A program made the translations under genes and the position numbers. From the IMG/VR virus record IMGVR_UViG_3300024581_003792, positions 191,006 to 213,830 of that record: 22,825 nucleotides of DNA, one strand, 5' to 3'. Below, piece by piece: positions 1-9,018 of the stretch. Below the pieces are notes generated by a model that saw only the letters and a list, made by a program, of their open reading frames with translations, was not told the origin of the DNA and made no database searches. Source of the DNA: a virus. Positions within the stretch are counted from its first letter, which is position 1; each line of letters starts with the position of its first letter.

Positions 1-474
1 CTAAATTATGCGAGGTCAAAAATATATGGCGCGCAGAATGCTGAAGATATTGTTCAAAATACAATACTAATACTTTGTCAAAAAATGAATCAATTCGATC
101 CAAATAAAAGCTTTCATGGTTGGGCGTTTAAAATCTGCAACAATCAGATGAAAAATTACTTCAGAAAAGTCAAAAGAAATAAGGAAGATTGTGTCGAATA
201 TATTAGCGATGTATGCAAAGAAAAATCAGATTCTTCAGTCGAAAAAATTATATCAAAAGAAAATCTTTACGATAAAACAAATAACATCCAATTATTTAAA
301 TCTAAATTATCACCTAAACAATCAAAAGTTTTTTGTTTCATAATGGATGGCATTTCAAGACGCGAAGCGAGAAAAATTCTAGGCATGACAGAAAACGCTT
401 TCAATACTACTTATAGTCGGGTAGTGGAAAATTGTAAAAAAATTTTAGAAAACGAAAGTGCGCAAGCTAAATAA
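1..474 (+). CDS. ECF-type sigma-70 family RNA polymerase sigma factor (5'-truncated by window edge)
   Basis: Frame is open from base 1 (LNYARSKIYGAQNAEDIVQNTILILCQKMNQFDPNKSFHGWAFKICNN). AEDIVQ and F..W...I..N match ECF region 2; LSPKQSKVF...GISRREARKILG matches the region 4 HTH. Confidence 0.85.
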   Translation, partial: LNYARSKIYGAQNAEDIVQNTILILCQKMNQFDPNKSFHGWAFKICNNQMKNYFRKVKRNKEDCVEYISDVCKEKSDSSVEKIISKENLYDKTNNIQLFKSKLSPKQSKVFCFIMDGISRREARKILGMTENAFNTTYSRVVENCKKILENESAQAK

Positions 475-1030
475 TACGGCTCGAAAAGATAAGATCTTAA
501 AACTTCGATTAGAAGGAAAAAGCTATCGAGAAATACAATCTATTATTGGTTGTTCAAAATCCACAATCTCTTATCATTGCGGAAATGGTAATGAAAAAAA
601 TAGGGTTAAAAGTGACATAAAAAAAAGAAAACCAATTTGCAAAAAAGTCTCTAGTTTTAAAACACGATGCTCTCGCGCAAATTATAAATTATTCCGAGCA
701 AAAGTAAAAACATTCAAAAGGCGCTCAAAATCAAAAGGCAACAAGACAAATACTATAGTTAATAGTATATCAAAAAATTATACTTGCCAGGATGTGATTA
801 AAAAATTTGGAAATAATCCAATTTGTTACTTAACAGGTAAACCCATAGATTTAGACAAGCCTGAGACTTATAATTTAGATCATATAATTCCTGCGTCAAG
901 AGGAGGCACAAATGATTTGGACAACTTAGGTCTCTGTCTTAAAGAAGCCAACCAAGCAAAAGGTGATTTATTGATTGAGGAACTTTATGATTTGTGCGAG
1001 CAAATATTACTTTGGAAATCTAAAAGTTAA
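458..1030 (+). CDS. HTH + HNH endonuclease
   Basis: N-terminal HTH (LRLEGKSYREIQSIIGCSKSTISYH); C-terminal CYLTG...LDHIIPASRGGTNDLDNL....AN..KG HNH motif. Confidence 0.85.
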   Translation: MRKLNNTARKDKILKLRLEGKSYREIQSIIGCSKSTISYHCGNGNEKNRVKSDIKKRKPICKKVSSFKTRCSRANYKLFRAKVKTFKRRSKSKGNKTNTIVNSISKNYTCQDVIKKFGNNPICYLTGKPIDLDKPETYNLDHIIPASRGGTNDLDNLGLCLKEANQAKGDLLIEELYDLCEQILLWKSKS

Positions 1031-1659
1031 AATATTATATACTGAATGTATTCTTGGTTTGGATAGTTCTCTAACAAAATAAATTCATTTGTTTGTGGCT
1101 CAAATATATACCACCCTCTTGTCGTCATAACTAGATTTACTGCATGTAGACCTCCTGTAGCAGGTATTCTTGCGAATTCATTTACTTGTCTGACTACGAC
1201 AATTCCTACCGCCATCTCTTTCTTTTGATTGCTTTTTAGGTTTGCGATACTCATGGTTGATTTGTATAGCATGGCATAGTTTTCACAATCCAAAGCTTCG
1301 CCATTGTCACCCAAAGACATCAATCCATTATCAAATAACAAATCCTGAAACCAATTATTAAATTTTCTAAAAAAATAATAATCAACCTTTTGATAACTAT
1401 TGTCCCATAATAATATTTTAATATCGGTTGGCACTTTCATTGGCACAGAGTTAAACGCTCTTTGTGTTGTGAAATGATACGCAAAATCTTTTTTATATAT
1501 CATATCCTTGTTCGCATCTGCATCCAAAGTTGGTATATCTTTGATATTTTCTAAATTTGTGTCAGTGCAAGCGACAAATAATAATGACATAACAGAGGCG
1601 AGCACAAGACTTAGCGCCCAAGATAATCTATAATTCTTTTTTATTATTTCCTTCATCAT
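1027..1659 (-). CDS. Putative lipoprotein with papain-like/transglutaminase-like cysteine protease domain (MOA lectin C-terminal-like)
   Basis: Hydrophobic N-terminus ending in lipobox LFVAC; motifs DCENYA, HAVN and FEPQ give a Cys-His-Glu triad. Confidence 0.7.
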   Translation of the reverse strand: MMKEIIKKNYRLSWALSLVLASVMSLLFVACTDTNLENIKDIPTLDADANKDMIYKKDFAYHFTTQRAFNSVPMKVPTDIKILLWDNSYQKVDYYFFRKFNNWFQDLLFDNGLMSLGDNGEALDCENYAMLYKSTMSIANLKSNQKKEMAVGIVVVRQVNEFARIPATGGLHAVNLVMTTRGWYIFEPQTNEFILLENYPNQEYIQYIIF

Positions 1660-1825
1660 TTCCCCCTAGTTTATTTAATATTTCTGTTTTTTCAGCCGCC
1701 GACATATCTAAATATTGTTTTTTAGCTAAAATATATGCGCTTCGCACCCTTAAATGAGGGTGAGCCGAGAAATCGACATCCTCCAAGTGCTTAACTATTA
1801 AGTAGTTAACTATTCTTTCATCCAT
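1628..1825 (-). CDS. Hypothetical protein (65 aa, MDERIV...)
   Basis: ATG at 1825 directly follows the GTGTA-N9 motif; overlaps the start of the downstream lipoprotein gene. Confidence 0.65.
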   Translation of the reverse strand: MDERIVNYLIVKHLEDVDFSAHPHLRVRSAYILAKKQYLDMSAAEKTEILNKLGGNDEGNNKKEL

Positions 1826-1840
1826 ATTTATGAGTACACA
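1826..1840 (-). promoter_or_regulatory. TGTGTA-N9-ATG motif, candidate second-class promoter
   Basis: - strand reads TGTGTACTCATAAAT then ATG; same geometry at 7951-7965. Confidence 0.5.
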
Positions 1841-1850
1841 CAAAAAATAG

Positions 1851-1879
1851 TTGACATCTCTTATGCTTTGTGGCAGACT
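1851..1879 (+). promoter_or_regulatory. sigma70-type promoter
   Basis: TTGACA-N17-CAGACT with extended TG, upstream of ORF 1918. Confidence 0.65.
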
Positions 1880-1917
1880 ACAATCTTAACTATTAATACA
1901 AACCCAAAAATAAAAAA

Positions 1918-2091
1918 ATGAATACTGAATATATTAAACTTACTGATCTATGGAACGATGGCGAATACGCTGAAATTGGACATATTATGAAAGAAGAATC
2001 ATGGAGCGCTAGTGAAATCGCCAAGTTTTGCGCTTATTTTGCCAAATATTGCGGAGTAAAGGATTTAAATCTTCTCTACAAGTTTCTATAA
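1918..2091 (+). CDS. Hypothetical protein (57 aa, not in ORF track)
   Basis: MNTEYIKLTDLWNDGEYAEIG...LLYKFL; fills the gap between a promoter and ORF 2093. Confidence 0.75.
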   Translation: MNTEYIKLTDLWNDGEYAEIGHIMKEESWSASEIAKFCAYFAKYCGVKDLNLLYKFL

Positions 2092-2092
2092 T

Positions 2093-2461
2093 ATGGACAA
2101 TCTTGAATTAGCTTGGCAAACTTACGAATTTCATACTGAAATGGCGGTTGAGTTTGAAGACAAGCATACAGATTTAATTGCGCGCTATCGCAACTTTGTC
2201 TCCAAGAATCTAAATCCTAGTCAATCGCAAAAAAAATGGTTACTAAATAGGTTAAATAAATCCTTCAACAGGCTATTAAGTACCTATGTAAAGCAAATGG
2301 ATGCGGTAAATGATTTGATCGACTTATATAATAGCGACATAGAAATCCCTGAAGAAAGAAAATTAGATAAGCAGTCTCTTTATAGCCTTTTAAATGTTAC
2401 CGCTACTCTATCCGAAGAAATGAAAATATATAGAAAAGAAATAAACGAAGTTTTGCGTTGA
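2093..2461 (+). CDS. Hypothetical protein
   Basis: ORF in tight operon; its TGA stop is part of the next TTGACA. Confidence 0.75.
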   Translation: MDNLELAWQTYEFHTEMAVEFEDKHTDLIARYRNFVSKNLNPSQSQKKWLLNRLNKSFNRLLSTYVKQMDAVNDLIDLYNSDIEIPEERKLDKQSLYSLLNVTATLSEEMKIYRKEINEVLR

Positions 2462-2486
2462 CATTAGTTTAACGATTTGATATACT
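2458..2486 (+). promoter_or_regulatory. sigma70-type promoter
   Basis: TTGACA-N17-TATACT with extended TG. Confidence 0.85.
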
Positions 2487-2522
2487 ATCATTTTTATATT
2501 AATAAATAAACACAAATATATT

Positions 2523-3722
2523 ATGGATTCACAAATTACAGGATTAGCTGAGAAGCAACAATTAAAGTGCAAAAAATACTTTGCTGAAAAAAATAAAGTA
2601 GATTTAAGTATTTCGCAAATATTAGAAGATGCTCCGTTATTTTATAGATCTGAAACAGGAGAAGTATTACGCTCTCACCCTTGGATGACAAGCTTTGGTC
2701 ATGGAATTCAGCAGGGTATTTTTTCCATCAATGGGACTGTGGCTTCTCATATTTTAGACCATTTCAATAATATTGAAAGTACTGATCCATCGAAAAGTAG
2801 ACGAAATCGAAAAAAAATGATTTCAAATATAAAAAGATATGCCAAGTCAATGAAAGAAGGCAATTGGAGGGTATCTGCGCCTATTTTATTTGAAGAAGGT
2901 ACAGGAGCTCTGCTTGATGGTCAAAATAGGTTGGAAGCTTTAGTTTTAGTTGCTAAAGATGTTTGCCCAAATAATTTGTCTGACTTCAGCCTTGCTTTTA
3001 ATGTTATATTTGGTGCAGAGCAAGCCATGCAGGACTATATCGACAAAGGTTCCTCTAGGACGATTATTCAAACCGCTAGAATTAAAGGTTTGATTGCTGA
3101 TCGTGATACAAACGGAATTGAAGCTTTAAAAATTCTAGAAGGAATCCTTCACAAAAAACAGGAAGGGAATGGCTTTGACAGATCGTTGGCTAACGAGGTA
3201 GATATTTTTGAAACTTGGAGCCAAGTAGAACCAAATACAGATCAAACTTATGAAGATATTTGTAGATGGGTAGCTCAAATGACTGGTTCGGATTCAGCCT
3301 ACGAACTTTTTGCAGGTCATAAAATTTGCCTTACTCAAGCTTATATTTTTAATAGAGAGAGGACAGAGTTATTTATAGAGTGCGTTACCGCTGAACTTGA
3401 AGCGCTTGAATCTTTAAGGGAAAGAGGTATTGATACAACTTTCTCTAGTGACGAATTCTCGTCTGTAAGGATTTGCAGGAACTATTTAAAAACTTTAGCT
3501 AAAAATAAAAAGCTAAACGGCTCCAATGGCGGTTCAGCTAAACCAATTCATTACGGAAATATGCTTTACTTTGTAACGCAATTTTTGAATAAACGAAAAA
3601 CTTCTAGCACTTGCTCTAGAGAATTAAGCTGTGAACCTAGAAAGCTGACCCAAGCTAGGTTTGTAAACCTCGGCAATTGCGTCGAAGAAGATTTTATCCA
3701 AAGTATTCTTAATATATCATAG
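2523..3722 (+). CDS. ParB/Srx-like (DGQHR-type) domain protein
   Basis: RNR...YAKSMKEGNW...PILF...LLDGQNRLEAL followed by ID.G..RT, typical of phage ParB-N-like proteins. Confidence 0.65.
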   Translation: MDSQITGLAEKQQLKCKKYFAEKNKVDLSISQILEDAPLFYRSETGEVLRSHPWMTSFGHGIQQGIFSINGTVASHILDHFNNIESTDPSKSRRNRKKMISNIKRYAKSMKEGNWRVSAPILFEEGTGALLDGQNRLEALVLVAKDVCPNNLSDFSLAFNVIFGAEQAMQDYIDKGSSRTIIQTARIKGLIADRDTNGIEALKILEGILHKKQEGNGFDRSLANEVDIFETWSQVEPNTDQTYEDICRWVAQMTGSDSAYELFAGHKICLTQAYIFNRERTELFIECVTAELEALESLRERGIDTTFSSDEFSSVRICRNYLKTLAKNKKLNGSNGGSAKPIHYGNMLYFVTQFLNKRKTSSTCSRELSCEPRKLTQARFVNLGNCVEEDFIQSILNIS

Positions 3723-3747
3723 ATGTAACCTAATTAATTATTCTCCC

Positions 3748-3788
3748 AAAAAGAGAGAGCGTTAATCAGCTCTCTCTTTTTTTTTTTT
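3748..3788 (+). terminator. Intrinsic terminator (possibly bidirectional)
   Basis: AAAAAGAGAGAGC-gttaatca-GCTCTCTCTTTTT stem with a 12-T run at 3777-3788. Confidence 0.9.
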
Positions 3789-3789
3789 G

Positions 3790-3818
3790 TTGACAAATAC
3801 TAAATCTTAAATTAAAGT
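3790..3818 (+). promoter_or_regulatory. sigma70-type promoter, near-leaderless
   Basis: TTGACA-N17-TAAAGT; ATG 8 nt downstream (3827). Confidence 0.75.
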
Positions 3819-3826
3819 GCGTTATT

Positions 3827-4165
3827 ATGCAGAATAAATCTAAAAATGTAATTCCGATCACTTACGAAGAATTGGGTGATTATATTGGCAAAAAAACTAT
3901 TGTGCTAGTCAGTCAAGATTGGCTTGAGTCAATTAAAATTGCGACACAAGTAACAAAGCAATGCTCAAAGTGCGAACAAGAGCTACCTCTCGATTCTTTT
4001 AATAACGATAAAAGAAGGCAGTTCGGTAAACGCTCTCAATGCAAATCTTGCTACAAAGAAGCTTCTATATCTCAAGGTGTGAAAGTTGCGCTTGACAATG
4101 CTACGAAAGAAGATTATAGTAGTGATATTGAATCTAAAATTGAATACAAAATAACACACTTCTAA
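3827..4165 (+). CDS. Small protein with C4 zinc ribbon
   Basis: KQCSKC...F....R..G.RSQCKSC resembles the zinc finger found N-terminal in phage HNH/endonuclease VII proteins; no nuclease domain follows. Confidence 0.7.
   Translation: MQNKSKNVIPITYEELGDYIGKKTIVLVSQDWLESIKIATQVTKQCSKCEQELPLDSFNNDKRRQFGKRSQCKSCYKEASISQGVKVALDNATKEDYSSDIESKIEYKITHF
4092..4120 (+). promoter_or_regulatory. sigma70-type promoter embedded in CDS, upstream of ruvB-like gene
   Basis: TTGACA-N17-TATAGT. Confidence 0.75.
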
Positions 4166-4167
4166 TT

Positions 4168-5094
4168 ATGAGTAACTACTTCTCCGACTTAATTGGTCAA
4201 AACGCAGTTAAAAAGAAGCTCGGCTTCTATCTTGATGCTTTCCATAAAACTTCTCAAGCCCCTTTCTTGTTAATGGCGGGGGCTAAGGGTCTCGGAAAAA
4301 CAGAGTTCGCAAAAGCTTTTGCTAGAAATTTGCACAATCAAGATGGGGACAAGCGCGCCTTTCTTGAATTAAATTGCTCCACAATTAAAAATAATGAGCA
4401 ATTCTTCGAGCAAATCTTTATTCCATTGATATGTGATAATGAAATAACAATATTGTTTGATGAATGCCACGAACTACCTCAAGACCTAACGATGGCTTTT
4501 TTAAGTATTTTTAATACCGAAGCAAATAGCAGAAAGACATTTGAATGGAATGGTATGAGTTTTGAGTTTAATTTCAGGCAACAAACTTTTATTTTTGCGA
4601 CAACTGAGACCGATAAAATATTCCCCCCATTAAAAGATCGTTTGACCAATGTTGACTTCGAGCCTTACAGCAAATCAGAACTTGGTAAAATCGTTGAGCT
4701 GTGCGCTCCCGAAATTATCTTTACTGAAGAATGTTTAAGCGAAGTTTCAGGAACGATTAGAAGTAATGCGCGTAGTGCGGTCAAAAGGGCTAAAGAAATT
4801 GCATTGTATTGCGGATCAAAAGATAACAATAATTTTGGAATTGACAACTTCAAAGAACTATGCGATACTATTGGAATATTACCATTCGGATTAACTAATA
4901 CTGAAAAACAAGTGCTTAAAATACTAAATGAATGTGGTTCTGTTACCCTGACAGGCTTATCAGCGAAACTCGGCTTGAGTTCAACTGCTGTCCGTCAAGA
5001 TCACGAACTCTATCTTTTAAATAAAAATCTTATCGAAATTGACGGCAAACGCAAGATTACCCACAATGGTCGTCAAGTATGCAAATTATTATGA
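4168..5094 (+). CDS. ruvB: RuvB-like Holliday junction branch migration AAA+ ATPase
   Basis: FSDLIGQ, Walker A GAKGLGKT, Walker B ILFDECH, sensor FATT, PLKDR and a C-terminal winged-helix region (GLT...E.YLL...RKIT). Confidence 0.85.
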   Translation: MSNYFSDLIGQNAVKKKLGFYLDAFHKTSQAPFLLMAGAKGLGKTEFAKAFARNLHNQDGDKRAFLELNCSTIKNNEQFFEQIFIPLICDNEITILFDECHELPQDLTMAFLSIFNTEANSRKTFEWNGMSFEFNFRQQTFIFATTETDKIFPPLKDRLTNVDFEPYSKSELGKIVELCAPEIIFTEECLSEVSGTIRSNARSAVKRAKEIALYCGSKDNNNFGIDNFKELCDTIGILPFGLTNTEKQVLKILNECGSVTLTGLSAKLGLSSTAVRQDHELYLLNKNLIEIDGKRKITHNGRQVCKLL

Positions 5095-5264
5095 ACAATT
5101 TAGAAATAGATAAACTACGACATGAGGTTTACACTCTTTGGTATCATGAAAATGATGGCGCTAAAAAAGAAACCTTGCAAAAAGTTCTTGATTTAATTGA
5201 TTTTACAAATGAAGCTATTAAAAAATTGCAATCAGTTGCTAATTTATTTGCCTCAATGCTATGA
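5091..5264 (+). CDS. Hypothetical protein
   Basis: ATGA overlap with the ruvB-like stop; MNNLEIDKLRHEVY... Confidence 0.7.
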   Translation: MNNLEIDKLRHEVYTLWYHENDGAKKETLQKVLDLIDFTNEAIKKLQSVANLFASML

Positions 5265-5428
5265 AAGAAACAGATAAGGTCTACCTAAAATGCGCGGAAG
5301 AATTAAACGAGCTTGCCACTAGATTATTACAACAAGTAAATAAAAGCAAAGATTATACTGAACAAATAAAGCAAGAACTAGAAGATGTAGAAAAACAAAT
5401 AAAATTACTTAAAAAATCTTTAGAGTAA
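5261..5428 (+). CDS. Minimal MazG-like (all-alpha NTP pyrophosphatase fold) protein, 55 aa, not in ORF track
   Basis: MKETDKVYLKCAEELNELATRLLQQVNKSKDYTEQIKQELEDVEKQIKLLKKSLE has EExxE...ExxD spacing; ATGA overlap with the upstream gene. Confidence 0.55.
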   Translation: MKETDKVYLKCAEELNELATRLLQQVNKSKDYTEQIKQELEDVEKQIKLLKKSLE

Positions 5429-5524
5429 AGCTATATCAAAGTCAGCATTAACTGATCCATTATTGCCAATTCACATTCGTATTTCTTTCGTGTGCAAATG
5501 GACTTGTATTTGGATATTTTTGAT

Positions 5525-5553
5525 TTGACATATTGCTAACTATATATTACACT
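5525..5553 (+). promoter_or_regulatory. sigma70-type promoter, leaderless
   Basis: TTGACA-N17-TACACT; ATG 6 nt downstream (5560). Confidence 0.8.
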
Positions 5554-5559
5554 TTTTTT

Positions 5560-6042
5560 ATGCAGGAAATTACCTTCAATGAATCAGAAATAGAATCCTT
5601 GAAAATATTAACTACTTGGCGGTGCAGAGGCAAGACGCACCTTAAAACAAAGTCTTTGATGTGTTCGGGTAGAAACAATGGTTCAGACTACGACAAGAGC
5701 TTTGAGGGTCACTACATGGGTATTGCAGGAGAATTTGCGGTTGCTAGGCACTTGAATGGGTATTTTGATGTAATGCCCAAGCCAAAAGGAGATAAACATA
5801 GCGCGGATATAATCATAGGGGTTGATGGAAAATTAAGAGTTTCTGTAAAAACCACAAAATATTCGCCCCCGATATTAAAACTCAATGGTTTGCATGAAAT
5901 AAAAGATGCTACTCACTTAGCTCTCTGCCATTATCAAGAACCCAAACTTACAATTCATTGGGTTAAATCCAAGAGTAATTTTCTAAATAATATGTATAAA
6001 AAAGATTTTGGTTACGGAGAAAGATTATGTCTAGGTATATAA
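5560..6042 (+). CDS. Putative PD-(D/E)xK-like nuclease
   Basis: GIAGEFAVA...ADII...VSVKTT pattern; start moved to ATG 5560 on promoter geometry. Confidence 0.5.
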   Translation: MQEITFNESEIESLKILTTWRCRGKTHLKTKSLMCSGRNNGSDYDKSFEGHYMGIAGEFAVARHLNGYFDVMPKPKGDKHSADIIIGVDGKLRVSVKTTKYSPPILKLNGLHEIKDATHLALCHYQEPKLTIHWVKSKSNFLNNMYKKDFGYGERLCLGI

Positions 6043-6059
6043 AAAAACAAAATTGGTGC

Positions 6060-6088
6060 TTGACATTACTTGTTTTATTAGTTATTAT
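6060..6088 (+). promoter_or_regulatory. sigma70-type promoter
   Basis: TTGACA-N17-TATTAT, with an overlapping TATAAT at 6086. Confidence 0.75.
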
Positions 6089-6107
6089 AATAATTTTATG
6101 GCGATAG

Positions 6108-6257
6108 ATGAGGCACACACTAGATATAACAAATGAAGAAATAATCAACTGCTATACCAACGAGTGGGTACTAGAATGGTGCAAGAAAAATCATCCTGAA
6201 ATTTTTGAAAAAGCTAAAGAAATAATAAAAGAATATGTAGAAGAAGATGAGAAATAA
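6108..6257 (+). CDS. Hypothetical protein (49 aa, not in ORF track)
   Basis: MRHTLDITNEEIINCYTNEWVLEWCKKNHPEIFEKAKEIIKEYVEEDEK; overlaps the next gene start. Confidence 0.65.
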   Translation: MRHTLDITNEEIINCYTNEWVLEWCKKNHPEIFEKAKEIIKEYVEEDEK

Positions 6258-6606
6258 ATGGTGGATAGGTGTTGTGTTTTTATTTGGTTGTCAATCAAAC
6301 AAGGTTCAAGAAGAGATTGACTTACCCCCGCCTCCGCCACTACCTCGGCACTTTTTGCCCCCAACCTCTCCTCCCAACTTTACGCCCGATATACTTGATG
6401 TTTACAAAATACAAATCAATCCTGTACCGCACCCCCTGAATCTAGGTCAACCTTATGTAATTTGGATCAATAAAGAAAAAGTTTCGATAGGAACACATAA
6501 GCTTAATGAGTTAATTGCTTTATTAAATTTACCAACTACTCCTCCTGAAGATACCGCTGAACTTCATAGTGGCGCAGGATGGCTAAAGCCCTTCTCAATA
6601 GAATAA
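6247..6606 (+). CDS. Putative proline-rich lipoprotein
   Basis: MRNKWWIGVVFLFGC lipobox followed by LPPPPPLP...PPTSPP. Confidence 0.65.
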   Translation: MRNKWWIGVVFLFGCQSNKVQEEIDLPPPPPLPRHFLPPTSPPNFTPDILDVYKIQINPVPHPLNLGQPYVIWINKEKVSIGTHKLNELIALLNLPTTPPEDTAELHSGAGWLKPFSIE

Positions 6607-6609
6607 ATT

Positions 6610-6867
6610 GTGTACGATAACGGAATAAATAATGAGTTTGAATACGCACACAATAGAGGCTTGCAAAGAGGTTTTGATCTCGGTTGGAGTTACAAAGGAA
6701 AATTTGATCGACAAATAATCCAAGACGAAATACTTAAATTAAAAGCTCAACATAAAAAAAGCAGACAAAAAAAATATTTAACAGAAATTTCGGCACTAGA
6801 ATCTATACTAGAAAAATTAAAAAACCATCCCTCAAATAAAGAAAATATTGATATTAATTTTTGGTGA
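6610..6867 (+). CDS. Hypothetical protein
   Basis: GTG start 3 nt after the upstream stop; tight packing. Confidence 0.65.
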   Translation: MYDNGINNEFEYAHNRGLQRGFDLGWSYKGKFDRQIIQDEILKLKAQHKKSRQKKYLTEISALESILEKLKNHPSNKENIDINFW

Positions 6868-7277
6868 TGAGTAAAAAAGATTTACCTGACAATTATGTGC
6901 CAAATGCTCATTCATTGCCTTACGCAAGTGATCTAGGCGCGCCTGTTATTCGTCCCGACCATAGCCTTGGTGGATGGAAAGTCGGGGCAGTACATACCGC
7001 AAATAAACACTACGAAGAGCGATTCAATAAATTAAAACAAGAGTTTGAGGAGTTAGCTGAAGATTACAAGTGGAATCAAATAATATTTAATGCAGAGATG
7101 CGCTTCAAACCTGTTATTGGTAAAGAATATTTTTTATATAAAAAGAGTGATGGAAGTTTTTACTTGACTTTATTTGCGCCACATGAGAAAATGGGTGGAT
7201 TTGAAGGATACGAAGGACAATTTAGACTTAACTATGATAATAGATGGGAGCAAATAAAATGTGGAACTACAGAATAA
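6867..7277 (+). CDS. DUF2452-like protein
   Basis: LPY...GAPVI.P, FKPVIGK.Y.LY, LTL..P.E and G.F.L.....W motifs. Confidence 0.7.
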   Translation: MSKKDLPDNYVPNAHSLPYASDLGAPVIRPDHSLGGWKVGAVHTANKHYEERFNKLKQEFEELAEDYKWNQIIFNAEMRFKPVIGKEYFLYKKSDGSFYLTLFAPHEKMGGFEGYEGQFRLNYDNRWEQIKCGTTE

Positions 7278-7540
7278 TACAAACCAAGCCCGAAGAATAT
7301 GGCTTATACGAAGTTATTTACAACGAAGATGGAGATATTTCTGCTTATACAGAAAACCCCGAAGTTATAGCGGAGAGTCCTGAAGATTTACTTTTAAGTC
7401 TTAGGCTCATGCTAGATGATGCGCAAAAATCTTACAATAATATCTTAAAATCAGATGAAATAGAATTTGCCCCTCTTTACGATGAAAGTGAAATGAGTGA
7501 AGCAATGACTATTGAAGAATTTAAAAACATAAACTCATAA
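7259..7540 (+). CDS. Hypothetical phage protein (WNYRI family)
   Basis: MWNYRII...YEVIY..DG.I...TE.P; acidic. Confidence 0.7.
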   Translation: MWNYRIIQTKPEEYGLYEVIYNEDGDISAYTENPEVIAESPEDLLLSLRLMLDDAQKSYNNILKSDEIEFAPLYDESEMSEAMTIEEFKNINS

Positions 7541-7634
7541 GTAAAAACATTGTGTCTACTATAATATCTCTTTCTAAAAAAAATAAAGATAAAGATACTA
7601 TAATATACAAACTTCTTTCAAAATCAGCGTCCAC
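7521..7634 (-). CDS. Small hydrophobic protein (37 aa, not in ORF track)
   Basis: GTG start overlaps the upstream TAG; MDADFERSLYIIVSLSLFFLERDIIVDTMFLLMSLCF. Confidence 0.45.
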   Translation of the reverse strand: MDADFERSLYIIVSLSLFFLERDIIVDTMFLLMSLCF

Positions 7635-7720
7635 TACTTATGAGGATAGCATATTACTGCAATCGCTGAAACAATAGATAGCCACAAAAACACATCCCAC
7701 AATTCCATTATCAAGCTCAT
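7634..7720 (-). CDS. Single-TM microprotein (28 aa, not in ORF track)
   Basis: ATGA overlap with the upstream gene; MSLIMELWDVFLWLSIVSAIAVICYPHK. Confidence 0.55.
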   Translation of the reverse strand: MSLIMELWDVFLWLSIVSAIAVICYPHK

Positions 7721-7950
7721 TTGTTTAATTTCTCGTAAATCTTGTGGATGTCTTGCCTTCTGTCTTCTAGTAATTTAGATGTTTGATCCCATCTTTCTGC
7801 ATCTCTAGCGCCATTTTTTGCTAAACTTACCTCTATTTCTCTTAATTTATTAGAAACTTTTTCGATTTTTATACTCTCTCGTTTCAAATAAAAAGCTATA
7901 ATTGATACCATAGCCCCTATCCCCAATAAAACTATTTTTTCTATCTCCAT
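7717..7950 (-). CDS. N-terminal TM + coiled-coil membrane protein (77 aa)
   Basis: MEIEKIVLLGIGAMVSIIAFYLKRE then a heptad-rich tail; ATG directly follows the GTGTA-N9 motif. Confidence 0.7.
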   Translation of the reverse strand: MEIEKIVLLGIGAMVSIIAFYLKRESIKIEKVSNKLREIEVSLAKNGARDAERWDQTSKLLEDRRQDIHKIYEKLNK

Positions 7951-7965
7951 ACTAATAAATACACA
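7951..7965 (-). promoter_or_regulatory. TGTGTA-N9-ATG motif, candidate second-class promoter
   Basis: - strand reads TGTGTATTTATTAGT then ATG. Confidence 0.5.
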
Positions 7966-7972
7966 TAAAGAC

Positions 7973-8001
7973 TTGACAAGAGTTTCTTTATAAGTTAAAG
8001 T
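7973..8001 (+). promoter_or_regulatory. sigma70-type promoter, leaderless
   Basis: TTGACA-N17-TAAAGT; ATG 6 nt downstream (8008). Confidence 0.8.
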
Positions 8002-8007
8002 GCAATC

Positions 8008-9018
8008 ATGACACAAATACTAGGACTAACTTGCATAAGTGAAATACTAAAAGAAAAGGATAAAACAAAATATTCTTTTCGCACAATGACTCGCAAAAGA
8101 TTTAATGACTTGTGTAACCAAGAAGGTAGAGATGAAGCAGTTAATCAATTATCTGAGAGAATTTTGCACAATGTTATTGTTACTCAATATATTGTCAATC
8201 ATTGTCATTCCTCAAATATTAGGCATTATCGTCTTAGTTCTGCTCTTTTCCCTCTCCTTACCGACCAAACTTTGGAAATTTCTCTTGAAGATTTGCCTCA
8301 CAAAGCTAGAATCGAACAAGAACTAAAGTTAGTAGGTTTAATTGCTGAAAAGTTTGATATATCAATCGGCTCTCATCCCGATCAATTTAATGTTCTCGCA
8401 TCTCCCGATAGAGACAAAGTTAATCGCACTATAAACGAACTTAATTTTCAAGCAAGTGTTCTTGACATGATTGGCTTGCCCCAAGATCATACTGCTCCAA
8501 TGAATATTCATATTAATTATTCACCAAAAGAAGACGAAACACTAGAAGTTGTTGCTACTAGATTTTTTCGCAATCTTTCTATGTGCGACAAAGGTGTTTA
8601 CAAGCGTCTTACTATCGAAAACGAAGACAAAGGTTTCTTTAATGTAGATAATTGCATTAAATTTAGCGACTATTTGTTTGAAACATTCGGTGCGAATATT
8701 CCTGTTTGCTATGACAATCTCCATGATTTTTGTAATCCATCAGAAGATCATAATGTTACATTCCAAGCAGAGCGTTGTGCTTATACATGGGTTAACCAAG
8801 GAGAAGGTGAGCATAACTTTCTTGCCCCTGTCTTCCATTGGTCAGAAGGTACGCCCGAAAAACCTCGTTCTCATGCGGATTATTTTGCTCTAGGTAATAC
8901 TCCACCTGTGATTGCGATTGAACCAAATAAACAAGTAAAGTGGGAATGTGAAGTTAAGCAAAAAGATAAAGCTATCCAAGTTTTGAGAAATAATCTAGCA
9001 GGGAAAATAAATGGGTAA
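8008..9018 (+). CDS. uvsE: UV DNA damage endonuclease UvsE/UvdE
   Basis: YRLSS.LFP, HPDQF.VL.S, NIH, RLTIENED, D.LH, HWSE, HADY and E.K.KD.A motifs. Confidence 0.92.
   Translation: MTQILGLTCISEILKEKDKTKYSFRTMTRKRFNDLCNQEGRDEAVNQLSERILHNVIVTQYIVNHCHSSNIRHYRLSSALFPLLTDQTLEISLEDLPHKARIEQELKLVGLIAEKFDISIGSHPDQFNVLASPDRDKVNRTINELNFQASVLDMIGLPQDHTAPMNIHINYSPKEDETLEVVATRFFRNLSMCDKGVYKRLTIENEDKGFFNVDNCIKFSDYLFETFGANIPVCYDNLHDFCNPSEDHNVTFQAERCAYTWVNQGEGEHNFLAPVFHWSEGTPEKPRSHADYFALGNTPPVIAIEPNKQVKWECEVKQKDKAIQVLRNNLAGKING

Follow-up and report, generated by a model that had tools for sequence, protein, structure and literature searches.

We analysed the final 22.8 kb of one virus contig of 213,830 bp (35.7% G+C; IMG/VR record IMGVR_UViG_3300024581_003792, positions 191,006 to 213,830), and this whole stretch of 22,825 nucleotides (nt) is called the window below. 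The contig comes from an uncultured marine phage, is linear according to IMG/VR and 100% complete according to CheckV, and showed no close cultured relative among 50,697 phage records in searches with megablast (8.4 kb) and tblastn (sigma factor). The window contains two islands of minus-strand genes, and a five-base word, GTGTA, stands shortly before the first start codon of each. The first-pass annotation had proposed that this word, together with a third copy, marks a second promoter class that heads every minus-strand island back-to-back with a sigma70-type promoter. Its coordinates for the three copies were correct, as was the 9-nt spacer at both island heads. The features concerned are listed below in window coordinates.

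1835-1840, minus strand: TGTGTA element (core GTGTA at 1835-1839), 9 nt before the ATG (1825-1823) of the first gene of island 1
1851-1879, plus strand: divergent sigma70-type promoter, TTGACA, 17 nt and a weak -10 box CAGACT, below the threshold of the consensus scan
5460-5531, minus strand: 23-codon stub of a deleted gene for a 276-amino-acid (aa) protein of the phrog_8198 family (function unknown), with the deletion junction near 5468
5525-5553, plus strand: sigma70-type promoter, TTGACA (5525-5530), 17 nt and TACACT (5548-5553), 6 nt before the ATG at 5560
5548-5553, minus strand: third copy, AGTGTA, 16 nt before the ATG (5531-5529) of the stub; the plus strand reads TACACT
7960-7965, minus strand: TGTGTA element (core GTGTA at 7960-7964), 9 nt before the ATG (7950-7948) of island 2
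7973-8001, plus strand: divergent sigma70-type promoter, TTGACA, 17 nt and TAAAGT, 6 nt before the ATG at 8008 of a UvdE-like gene

No TTGACA is present on the minus strand in either divergent gap, as had been stated, and the plus-strand TTGACA boxes (1851-1856, 7973-7978 and 5525-5530) leave gaps of 11 and 8 nt at the two island heads and overlap at the third copy.

The window by itself proves little, since GTGTA-N9-ATG was seen twice against 0.54 expected and at least two occurrences were obtained in 11 of 100 shuffles. Enrichment before start codons across the whole genome had been set in advance as a check, and it was present. Gene calling on the full genome placed 244 genes on the plus strand and 29 on the minus strand (273 in all), and of the 163 GTGTA words on both strands, 24 precede a called start codon by 9-13 nt, where 0.52 would be expected. 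At the same distance, four complete relatives carry 11, 22, 20, and 16 sites against 0.3-0.4 expected, and in 742 distinct upstream regions of IMG/VR relatives GTGTA was counted 33 times, compared with 1-11 times for ten control pentamers. When the genome and its relatives were pooled, GTGTA was the top pentamer at start-codon distance with 30-fold enrichment, and its single-base variants were weakly enriched (CTGTA 4.4-fold, the maximum; GTATA 3.2-fold; ATGTA 1.9-fold). The spacers peaked at 9-10 nt.

Next, 57 distinct GTGTA sites were aligned. Information was found in GTGTA itself, in T at -4/-3 upstream, and in a G-poor A/T spacer downstream, and nowhere else; the longer pattern GTGTA-nTnWWWART proposed at first is not kept in relatives beyond these elements. 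No conserved -35 signal was detected in this alignment. The alignment bears on the possibility that GTGTA is an unusual -10 element read by the host polymerase with a primary or alternative sigma factor and no phage sigma, the two promoter classes differing in strength or host regulation. The TA of GTGTA can stand for T-12/A-11 in a -10 hexamer, some sites read GTGTATAAT, and the position relative to the start codon is the same as in the sigma70-type class. However, the equivalent of the -7 T is present in only 25 of the 57 sites and GTG is invariant, unlike in the extended -10 element TGnTATAAT; here TG directly abuts TA with no spacer base. The two classes also occupy complementary genome regions, and two sigma genes are conserved in all five relatives rated 100% complete, so that we regard reading by the host machinery alone as unlikely.

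The element was conserved amid diverging flanks. At island 1, the relatives L051-L057 retain GTGTA at a distance of 9-10 nt, with diverged spacers and flanks and protein identity as low as 45-49%; the facing TTGACA-N17-CAGACT promoter is kept in L051, L052, and L054, and a nearby TACAAT is not. CAGACT (1874-1879) is an unusual -10 box. For island 2, 50 relatives of the UvdE-like gene (8008-9018) were retrieved with their upstream DNA. Those with a divergent gene show CAT, 8-13 nt, TACAC, 7-11 (once 16) nt, and TTGAC, with spacers that differ almost fully, whereas those without a divergent gene retain TTGAC and lack TACAC. Therefore, TACAC belongs to the leftward gene and not to the rightward promoter. 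Near the UvdE gene in these relatives, GTGTA was located 8-16 nt upstream of 24 of 44 minus-strand genes but only 4 of 589 plus-strand genes, and no other conserved promoter was found on the minus strand at the divergent heads. Inside the UvdE gene, the minus strand carries a sigma70-like site (8198-8171), which was rejected as the island promoter because it tracks Ile-Val-Asn codons, occurs in relatives lacking the island, and is missing from many that have it.

The back-to-back pairing with TTGACA promoters was likewise conserved: GTGTA is paired with a sigma70-type promoter at 23 of 38 distinct divergent junctions, and the gap between TACAC and TTGAC is 7-8 nt in 15 of 22 junctions and never shorter. 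This adjacency would suit a binding site at which a phage regulator acts together with the nearby sigma70-type promoter, as a repressor or as an activator like MotA of T4. Against such a regulator, 18 of the 24 genomic sites stand at co-directional junctions with no nearby TTGACA, and the same TTGAC promoters lack TACAC wherever there is no divergent gene. With an activator box at -30, moreover, the start would fall inside conserved coding sequence, and dimeric regulators do not typically recognise asymmetric words of 5 bp. We consider a regulator site very improbable.

We also examined whether GTGTA could act at the RNA level, as a processing site or as an initiation element for messages devoid of a Shine-Dalgarno sequence, with transcription starting elsewhere. 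The fixed short distance to start codons fits such a signal, and Shine-Dalgarno use is low overall: a Shine-Dalgarno 4-mer precedes 109 of 944 other genes and none of the 57 genes with short-spacer GTGTA, in part because the spacer leaves no room. In contrast, genes with long spacers do show a Shine-Dalgarno sequence between GTGTA and ATG, which fits transcription starting after GTGTA. GGAGG or GAGGG lies directly before the ATG in the relatives L021 (23 nt) and L028 (18 nt), and AAGGA or AAAGG occurs in the 19-23 nt spacers before a 4,460-aa gene (genome position 59987) and a 1,754-aa gene of the present phage. In addition, the promoter at divergent heads would have to lie inside the neighbouring gene, where none is conserved, and in L056 merely 26 nt separate the divergent ATGs. 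The motif also survives at the stub of a deleted gene, though its bases are shared there with the plus-strand promoter. An RNA-level signal is accordingly quite improbable.

The third copy required separate treatment, as its complement is the -10 box of the plus-strand promoter at 5525-5553, the -35 box of which overlaps the ATG of the stub. The idea that it is a mere reverse complement of that -10 box was rejected, because relatives carry a full GTGTA-headed 276-aa gene at this place. The complete minus-strand gene is present in L080/L082, L081/L084, and L087, and it starts exactly at the ATG overlapping TTGACAT; blastn against L087 revealed a clean 724-bp deletion in the window (L087 1265-1988 missing). 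The spacer between GTGTA and this gene is 16 nt in L082, L084, and L087 and 10-13 nt in L083 and L089-L093, and in more distant relatives the GTGTA is back-to-back with TGTCAA 7-13 nt upstream. Judged from these alignments, the third copy is a genuine member of the class, orphaned as the relic head of a deleted gene. It has probably been retained because the same bases serve the plus-strand promoter. The putative -10 elements of the two strands share base pairs, with a predicted distance of about 20 bp between the divergent starts. A comparable arrangement was noted at genome positions 189987-190011, where 23 nt separate a GTGTA-headed minus-strand gene from the plus-strand operon carrying the sigma gene of the window. 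There AGTGTA/TACACT is again located 6 nt before the plus-strand ATG, as at 5548-5553, with no TTGACA at 17 nt.

The class had been linked to membrane and lipoprotein genes, a restriction that did not hold. GTGTA also precedes the genes for NrdA (ribonucleotide reductase large subunit), a nucleotide-sugar epimerase, a 1,449-aa tail protein, a GHKL-type ATPase, and soluble small proteins, and island 1 opens with a soluble 65-aa protein; the variety of these genes argues that the class is not membrane-gene specific. Searches of the structural-looking GTGTA-headed genes against PHROG and Pfam mostly gave no match. As to orientation, 18 of the 24 genomic sites are on the plus strand, and these are confined to 10-190 kb. 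Sigma70-type promoters (TTGAC-N17-19-TAnnnT) are clustered at 0-20 kb and 190-214 kb, among small genes. Every GTGTA site of this early region lies on the minus strand, at four of four heads and at the relic. The statement that every minus-strand island is so headed therefore stands for the window and the early region but not for the whole genome, where about 5 of 10 minus-strand heads have GTGTA. Across five whole genomes, 13 sites opposite to and 8 co-oriented with the sigma70-type promoters were counted in sigma70-rich neighbourhoods, compared with 6 and 29 elsewhere. GTGTA is thus a general post-early class, neither a minus-strand class nor a membrane-gene class. Within the window, 39 TTGACA boxes were counted where 16.7 would be expected, 33 being plus-strand copies, and consensus TTGACA-N17-TAnnnT promoters were located at 2458-2486, 3790-3818, 5525-5553, 6060-6088, and 7973-8001.

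Candidate proteins for reading the element were searched for in the genome, and three sigma-like genes, here called s1, s2, and s3, were identified.

1-474 (genome 190934-191479), plus strand: s1, a 181-aa sigma factor of the extracytoplasmic function (ECF) type, the 3' part of which lies in the window; its best solved relative is CnrH (E 5e-6)
genome 34051-34833: s2, 260 aa, with Sigma70 region 2
genome 96472-97080, minus strand: s3, 202 aa, with no Pfam match alone; a five-orthologue profile matches FliA (4e-6) and SigA region 2

The first-pass annotation had named s1 as one candidate reader. A protein search and a Sigma70_r2 scan showed that s1 is missing from the complete relatives G001, G002, and G003, which identifies it as an accessory gene of the family. 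These three genomes, all rated 100% complete, nevertheless keep the motif (11, 22, and 20 sites at 9-13 nt, as above); therefore, s1 is not needed for the class. ECF promoters contain a conserved -35 box (AAC-type) and a short -10 box (CGT-type), and no -35 signal accompanies the GTGTA sites. Both s2 and s3 are present in all five complete relatives, and the reader is likely one of these two. The 202-aa s3 appears the better-fitting of the pair, as its operon seems to start with a host-type promoter: TTGAC[AT]-N17-TAnnnT lies next to the first ATG in G002, G003, and G004, while G000 has a perfect TTGACA with no TAnnnT at 17 nt and G001 has the weaker look-alike TTGAAT. The s2 gene is downstream of GTGTA heads in four of five genomes. 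No phage-encoded homologue of an RNA polymerase beta subunit was found. A search for a third sharp promoter motif that might belong to the remaining sigma factors gave only generic TATA-rich hexamers.

Taken together, the enrichment, the conservation amid diverging flanks, the absence of the word where the divergent gene is absent, and the geometry parallel to that of sigma70-type promoters support the proposal of a second promoter class with no -35 box. The best overall explanation, to which we assign a probability of roughly 70%, is that a phage-specific class of promoters has GTGTA as its core -10-type element and is probably read by a phage-made sigma factor. Several points weigh against this explanation. 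Promoter function, start sites, the reading sigma, and mutual exclusion are deductions from sequence, based on the observed enrichment, conservation, and geometry. All gene-start statistics come from a purpose-made, crude codon-score caller, which is blind to GTGTA because starts were picked by coding score only. Sites in relatives are often orthologous, so that their counts do not represent independent events. Orientation follows a tendency and not a law, given the 8 co-oriented sites in sigma70-rich neighbourhoods, and the short gap to the -35 box could reflect mere genome compaction. With regard to the reader, ECF-type sigma factors normally need a -35 box, an alternative sigma factor of the host may read the element, and a search for a T7-type polymerase was uninformative, as its control matched nowhere.

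We propose the following model. Host core RNA polymerase carrying a phage-made sigma factor would read GTGTA with no -35 box and would start transcription about 9 nt after its final A. Given spacers of 9-13 nt, the leader would then be about 0-5 nt long. A usual sigma70-dependent start lies about 7 nt after the -10 box, and in 20 of 38 sigma70-type promoters near genes the -10 box ends 6-8 nt before the start codon, so that the usual start would fall on the A of ATG. A near-leaderless design therefore looks general in this phage, the early genes included. The GTGTA class would drive post-early genes throughout the genome, and plus-strand genes of the early region would be transcribed from TTGACA-N17-TAnnnT promoters, with the inverted GTGTA units kept out of early read-through. 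The simplest cascade would run from host sigma70 to early s3 and from s3 to the GTGTA-headed genes, including s2.

At the junction of 7960 and 7973, starts are predicted near 7951 (minus) and 8008 (plus). These would place TTGACA at about -22 to -27 of the GTGTA promoter and GTGTA at -44 to -48 of the early promoter, so that a polymerase bound at GTGTA would be expected to cover the early -35 box to a greater degree than an early polymerase would cover GTGTA. The two promoters at 5548-5553 would share their melted bases, which suggests that only one of them is used at a time. Extending this, we tentatively suggest that the GTGTA/TTGACA junctions might act as early-to-late toggles, in which switching on the inverted unit switches off its early neighbour, the inverted orientation shields the unit from read-through, and two sigma factors form the cascade; this part of the model is possible but doubtful.

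A literature search for GTGTA phage promoters returned nothing relevant. The class was compared with known systems. T4-type late promoters have TATAAATA at -10 and are read by gp55 with gp33 and the sliding clamp. They resemble the present class in having one element and no -35 box, a sigma-like phage protein as reader, and post-early genes as targets. However, the sequence is different, and the class described here also covers nucleotide-metabolism genes; a gp55-type protein was not identified, the match to the phrog_234 'late sigma' family having an E value of 0.004 only. A parallel in sequence is found in phiEco32, whose middle and late promoters contain an AATGTA box near -11.5 that is read by the sigma factor gp36 with gp79 (PMC12276001). 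In that box T-12 is the last paired base and G-11 the first melted one, followed by T-10 and A-9, and gp36 is a small two-domain phage sigma that acts on the host core polymerase after an early sigma70 phase (PMC12276001). The TGTA core is common to AATGTA and GTGTA, and both promoters consist of a single box with no conserved -35 hexamer; if the phiEco32 numbering is applied here, +1 would fall one to five bases before the ATG. In contrast to phiEco32, the invariant word here is GTGTA (30-fold, against 1.9-fold for ATGTA), which departs from the AATGTA consensus, and the promoters abut start codons. No homology to gp36 (structure 9M7Y) emerged when PDB sequences were searched with s1, s2, and a profile of s3, the matches being ECF, FliA, and SigA chains.

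The overlap at 5548-5553 recalls bacterial bidirectional promoters with overlapping -10 elements, in which divergent starts are commonly 18, 10, or 23 bp apart and the two orientations compete (PMC12825309). Likewise, TACACT (plus) and GTGTA (minus) occupy the same base pairs in the window, at a similar predicted distance between starts. The difference is that two sigma factors are proposed here and not one symmetric -10 element, and that the minus-strand gene has been deleted in this phage.

If the model is correct, uncultured marine phages of a large family (contigs of about 100-210 kb) would run their post-early programme from a five-base promoter adjacent to the start codon, and transcription units and temporal classes could be read from sequence in hundreds of metagenomic genomes. 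The host would also have to be efficient at translating leaderless messages. GTGTA and the early promoters, in their conserved pairing, would form a compact natural switch between two sigma factors, open to testing in vitro. The distribution of sigma genes across relatives has cut the candidate readers from three proteins to two.

The genes of the two islands are as follows.

1027-1659, minus strand: second gene of island 1, a 210-aa probable lipoprotein with a signal peptide ending ...LLFVAC and no Pfam or PHROG family match
1628-1825, minus strand: head gene of island 1, the 65-aa soluble protein, with no Pfam or PHROG match
7634-7720, minus strand: 28-codon hydrophobic open reading frame (membrane helix) that overlaps the preceding stop codon (ATGA)
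7717-7950, minus strand: head gene of island 2, a 77-aa protein with an N-terminal membrane helix and a coiled coil, and a weak ZapG-like match below the Pfam cut-off

In L007, a homologue of the 28-codon peptide begins the island. The 65-aa head gene has a paralogue at genome 7293-7487 (minus strand), which is likewise the first gene of a GTGTA-headed inverted unit of the early region; the N-termini read MDERIVNYLIV... in the window and MRDKIINYLV... in the paralogue. A search for the function of the lipoprotein in Atlas gave viral hypothetical clusters only and a weak lectin/agglutinin lead. The lipoprotein gene converges with an HNH endonuclease gene (458-1030, plus strand, with an N-terminal helix-turn-helix), and the two overlap by 4 nt at 1027-1030. 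This overlap leaves no space for a terminator between the genes, so a collision of the two transcription units or antisense RNA is to be expected.

Outside the window, two GTGTA sites at genome 28147 and 155237 have the upstream word GCCTTAAATTA in common, which may be a repeated element or an extended variant of the promoter. At the divergent junction of genome 32296-32359, two GTGTA elements stand back-to-back (TACAC, 8 nt, GTGTA), one heading a minus-strand island and the other 33 nt before a PhoH-like gene. Within the window, a strong terminator-like hairpin (3748-3781; 13 pairs followed by a T run) lies directly before the TTGACA promoter at 3790.

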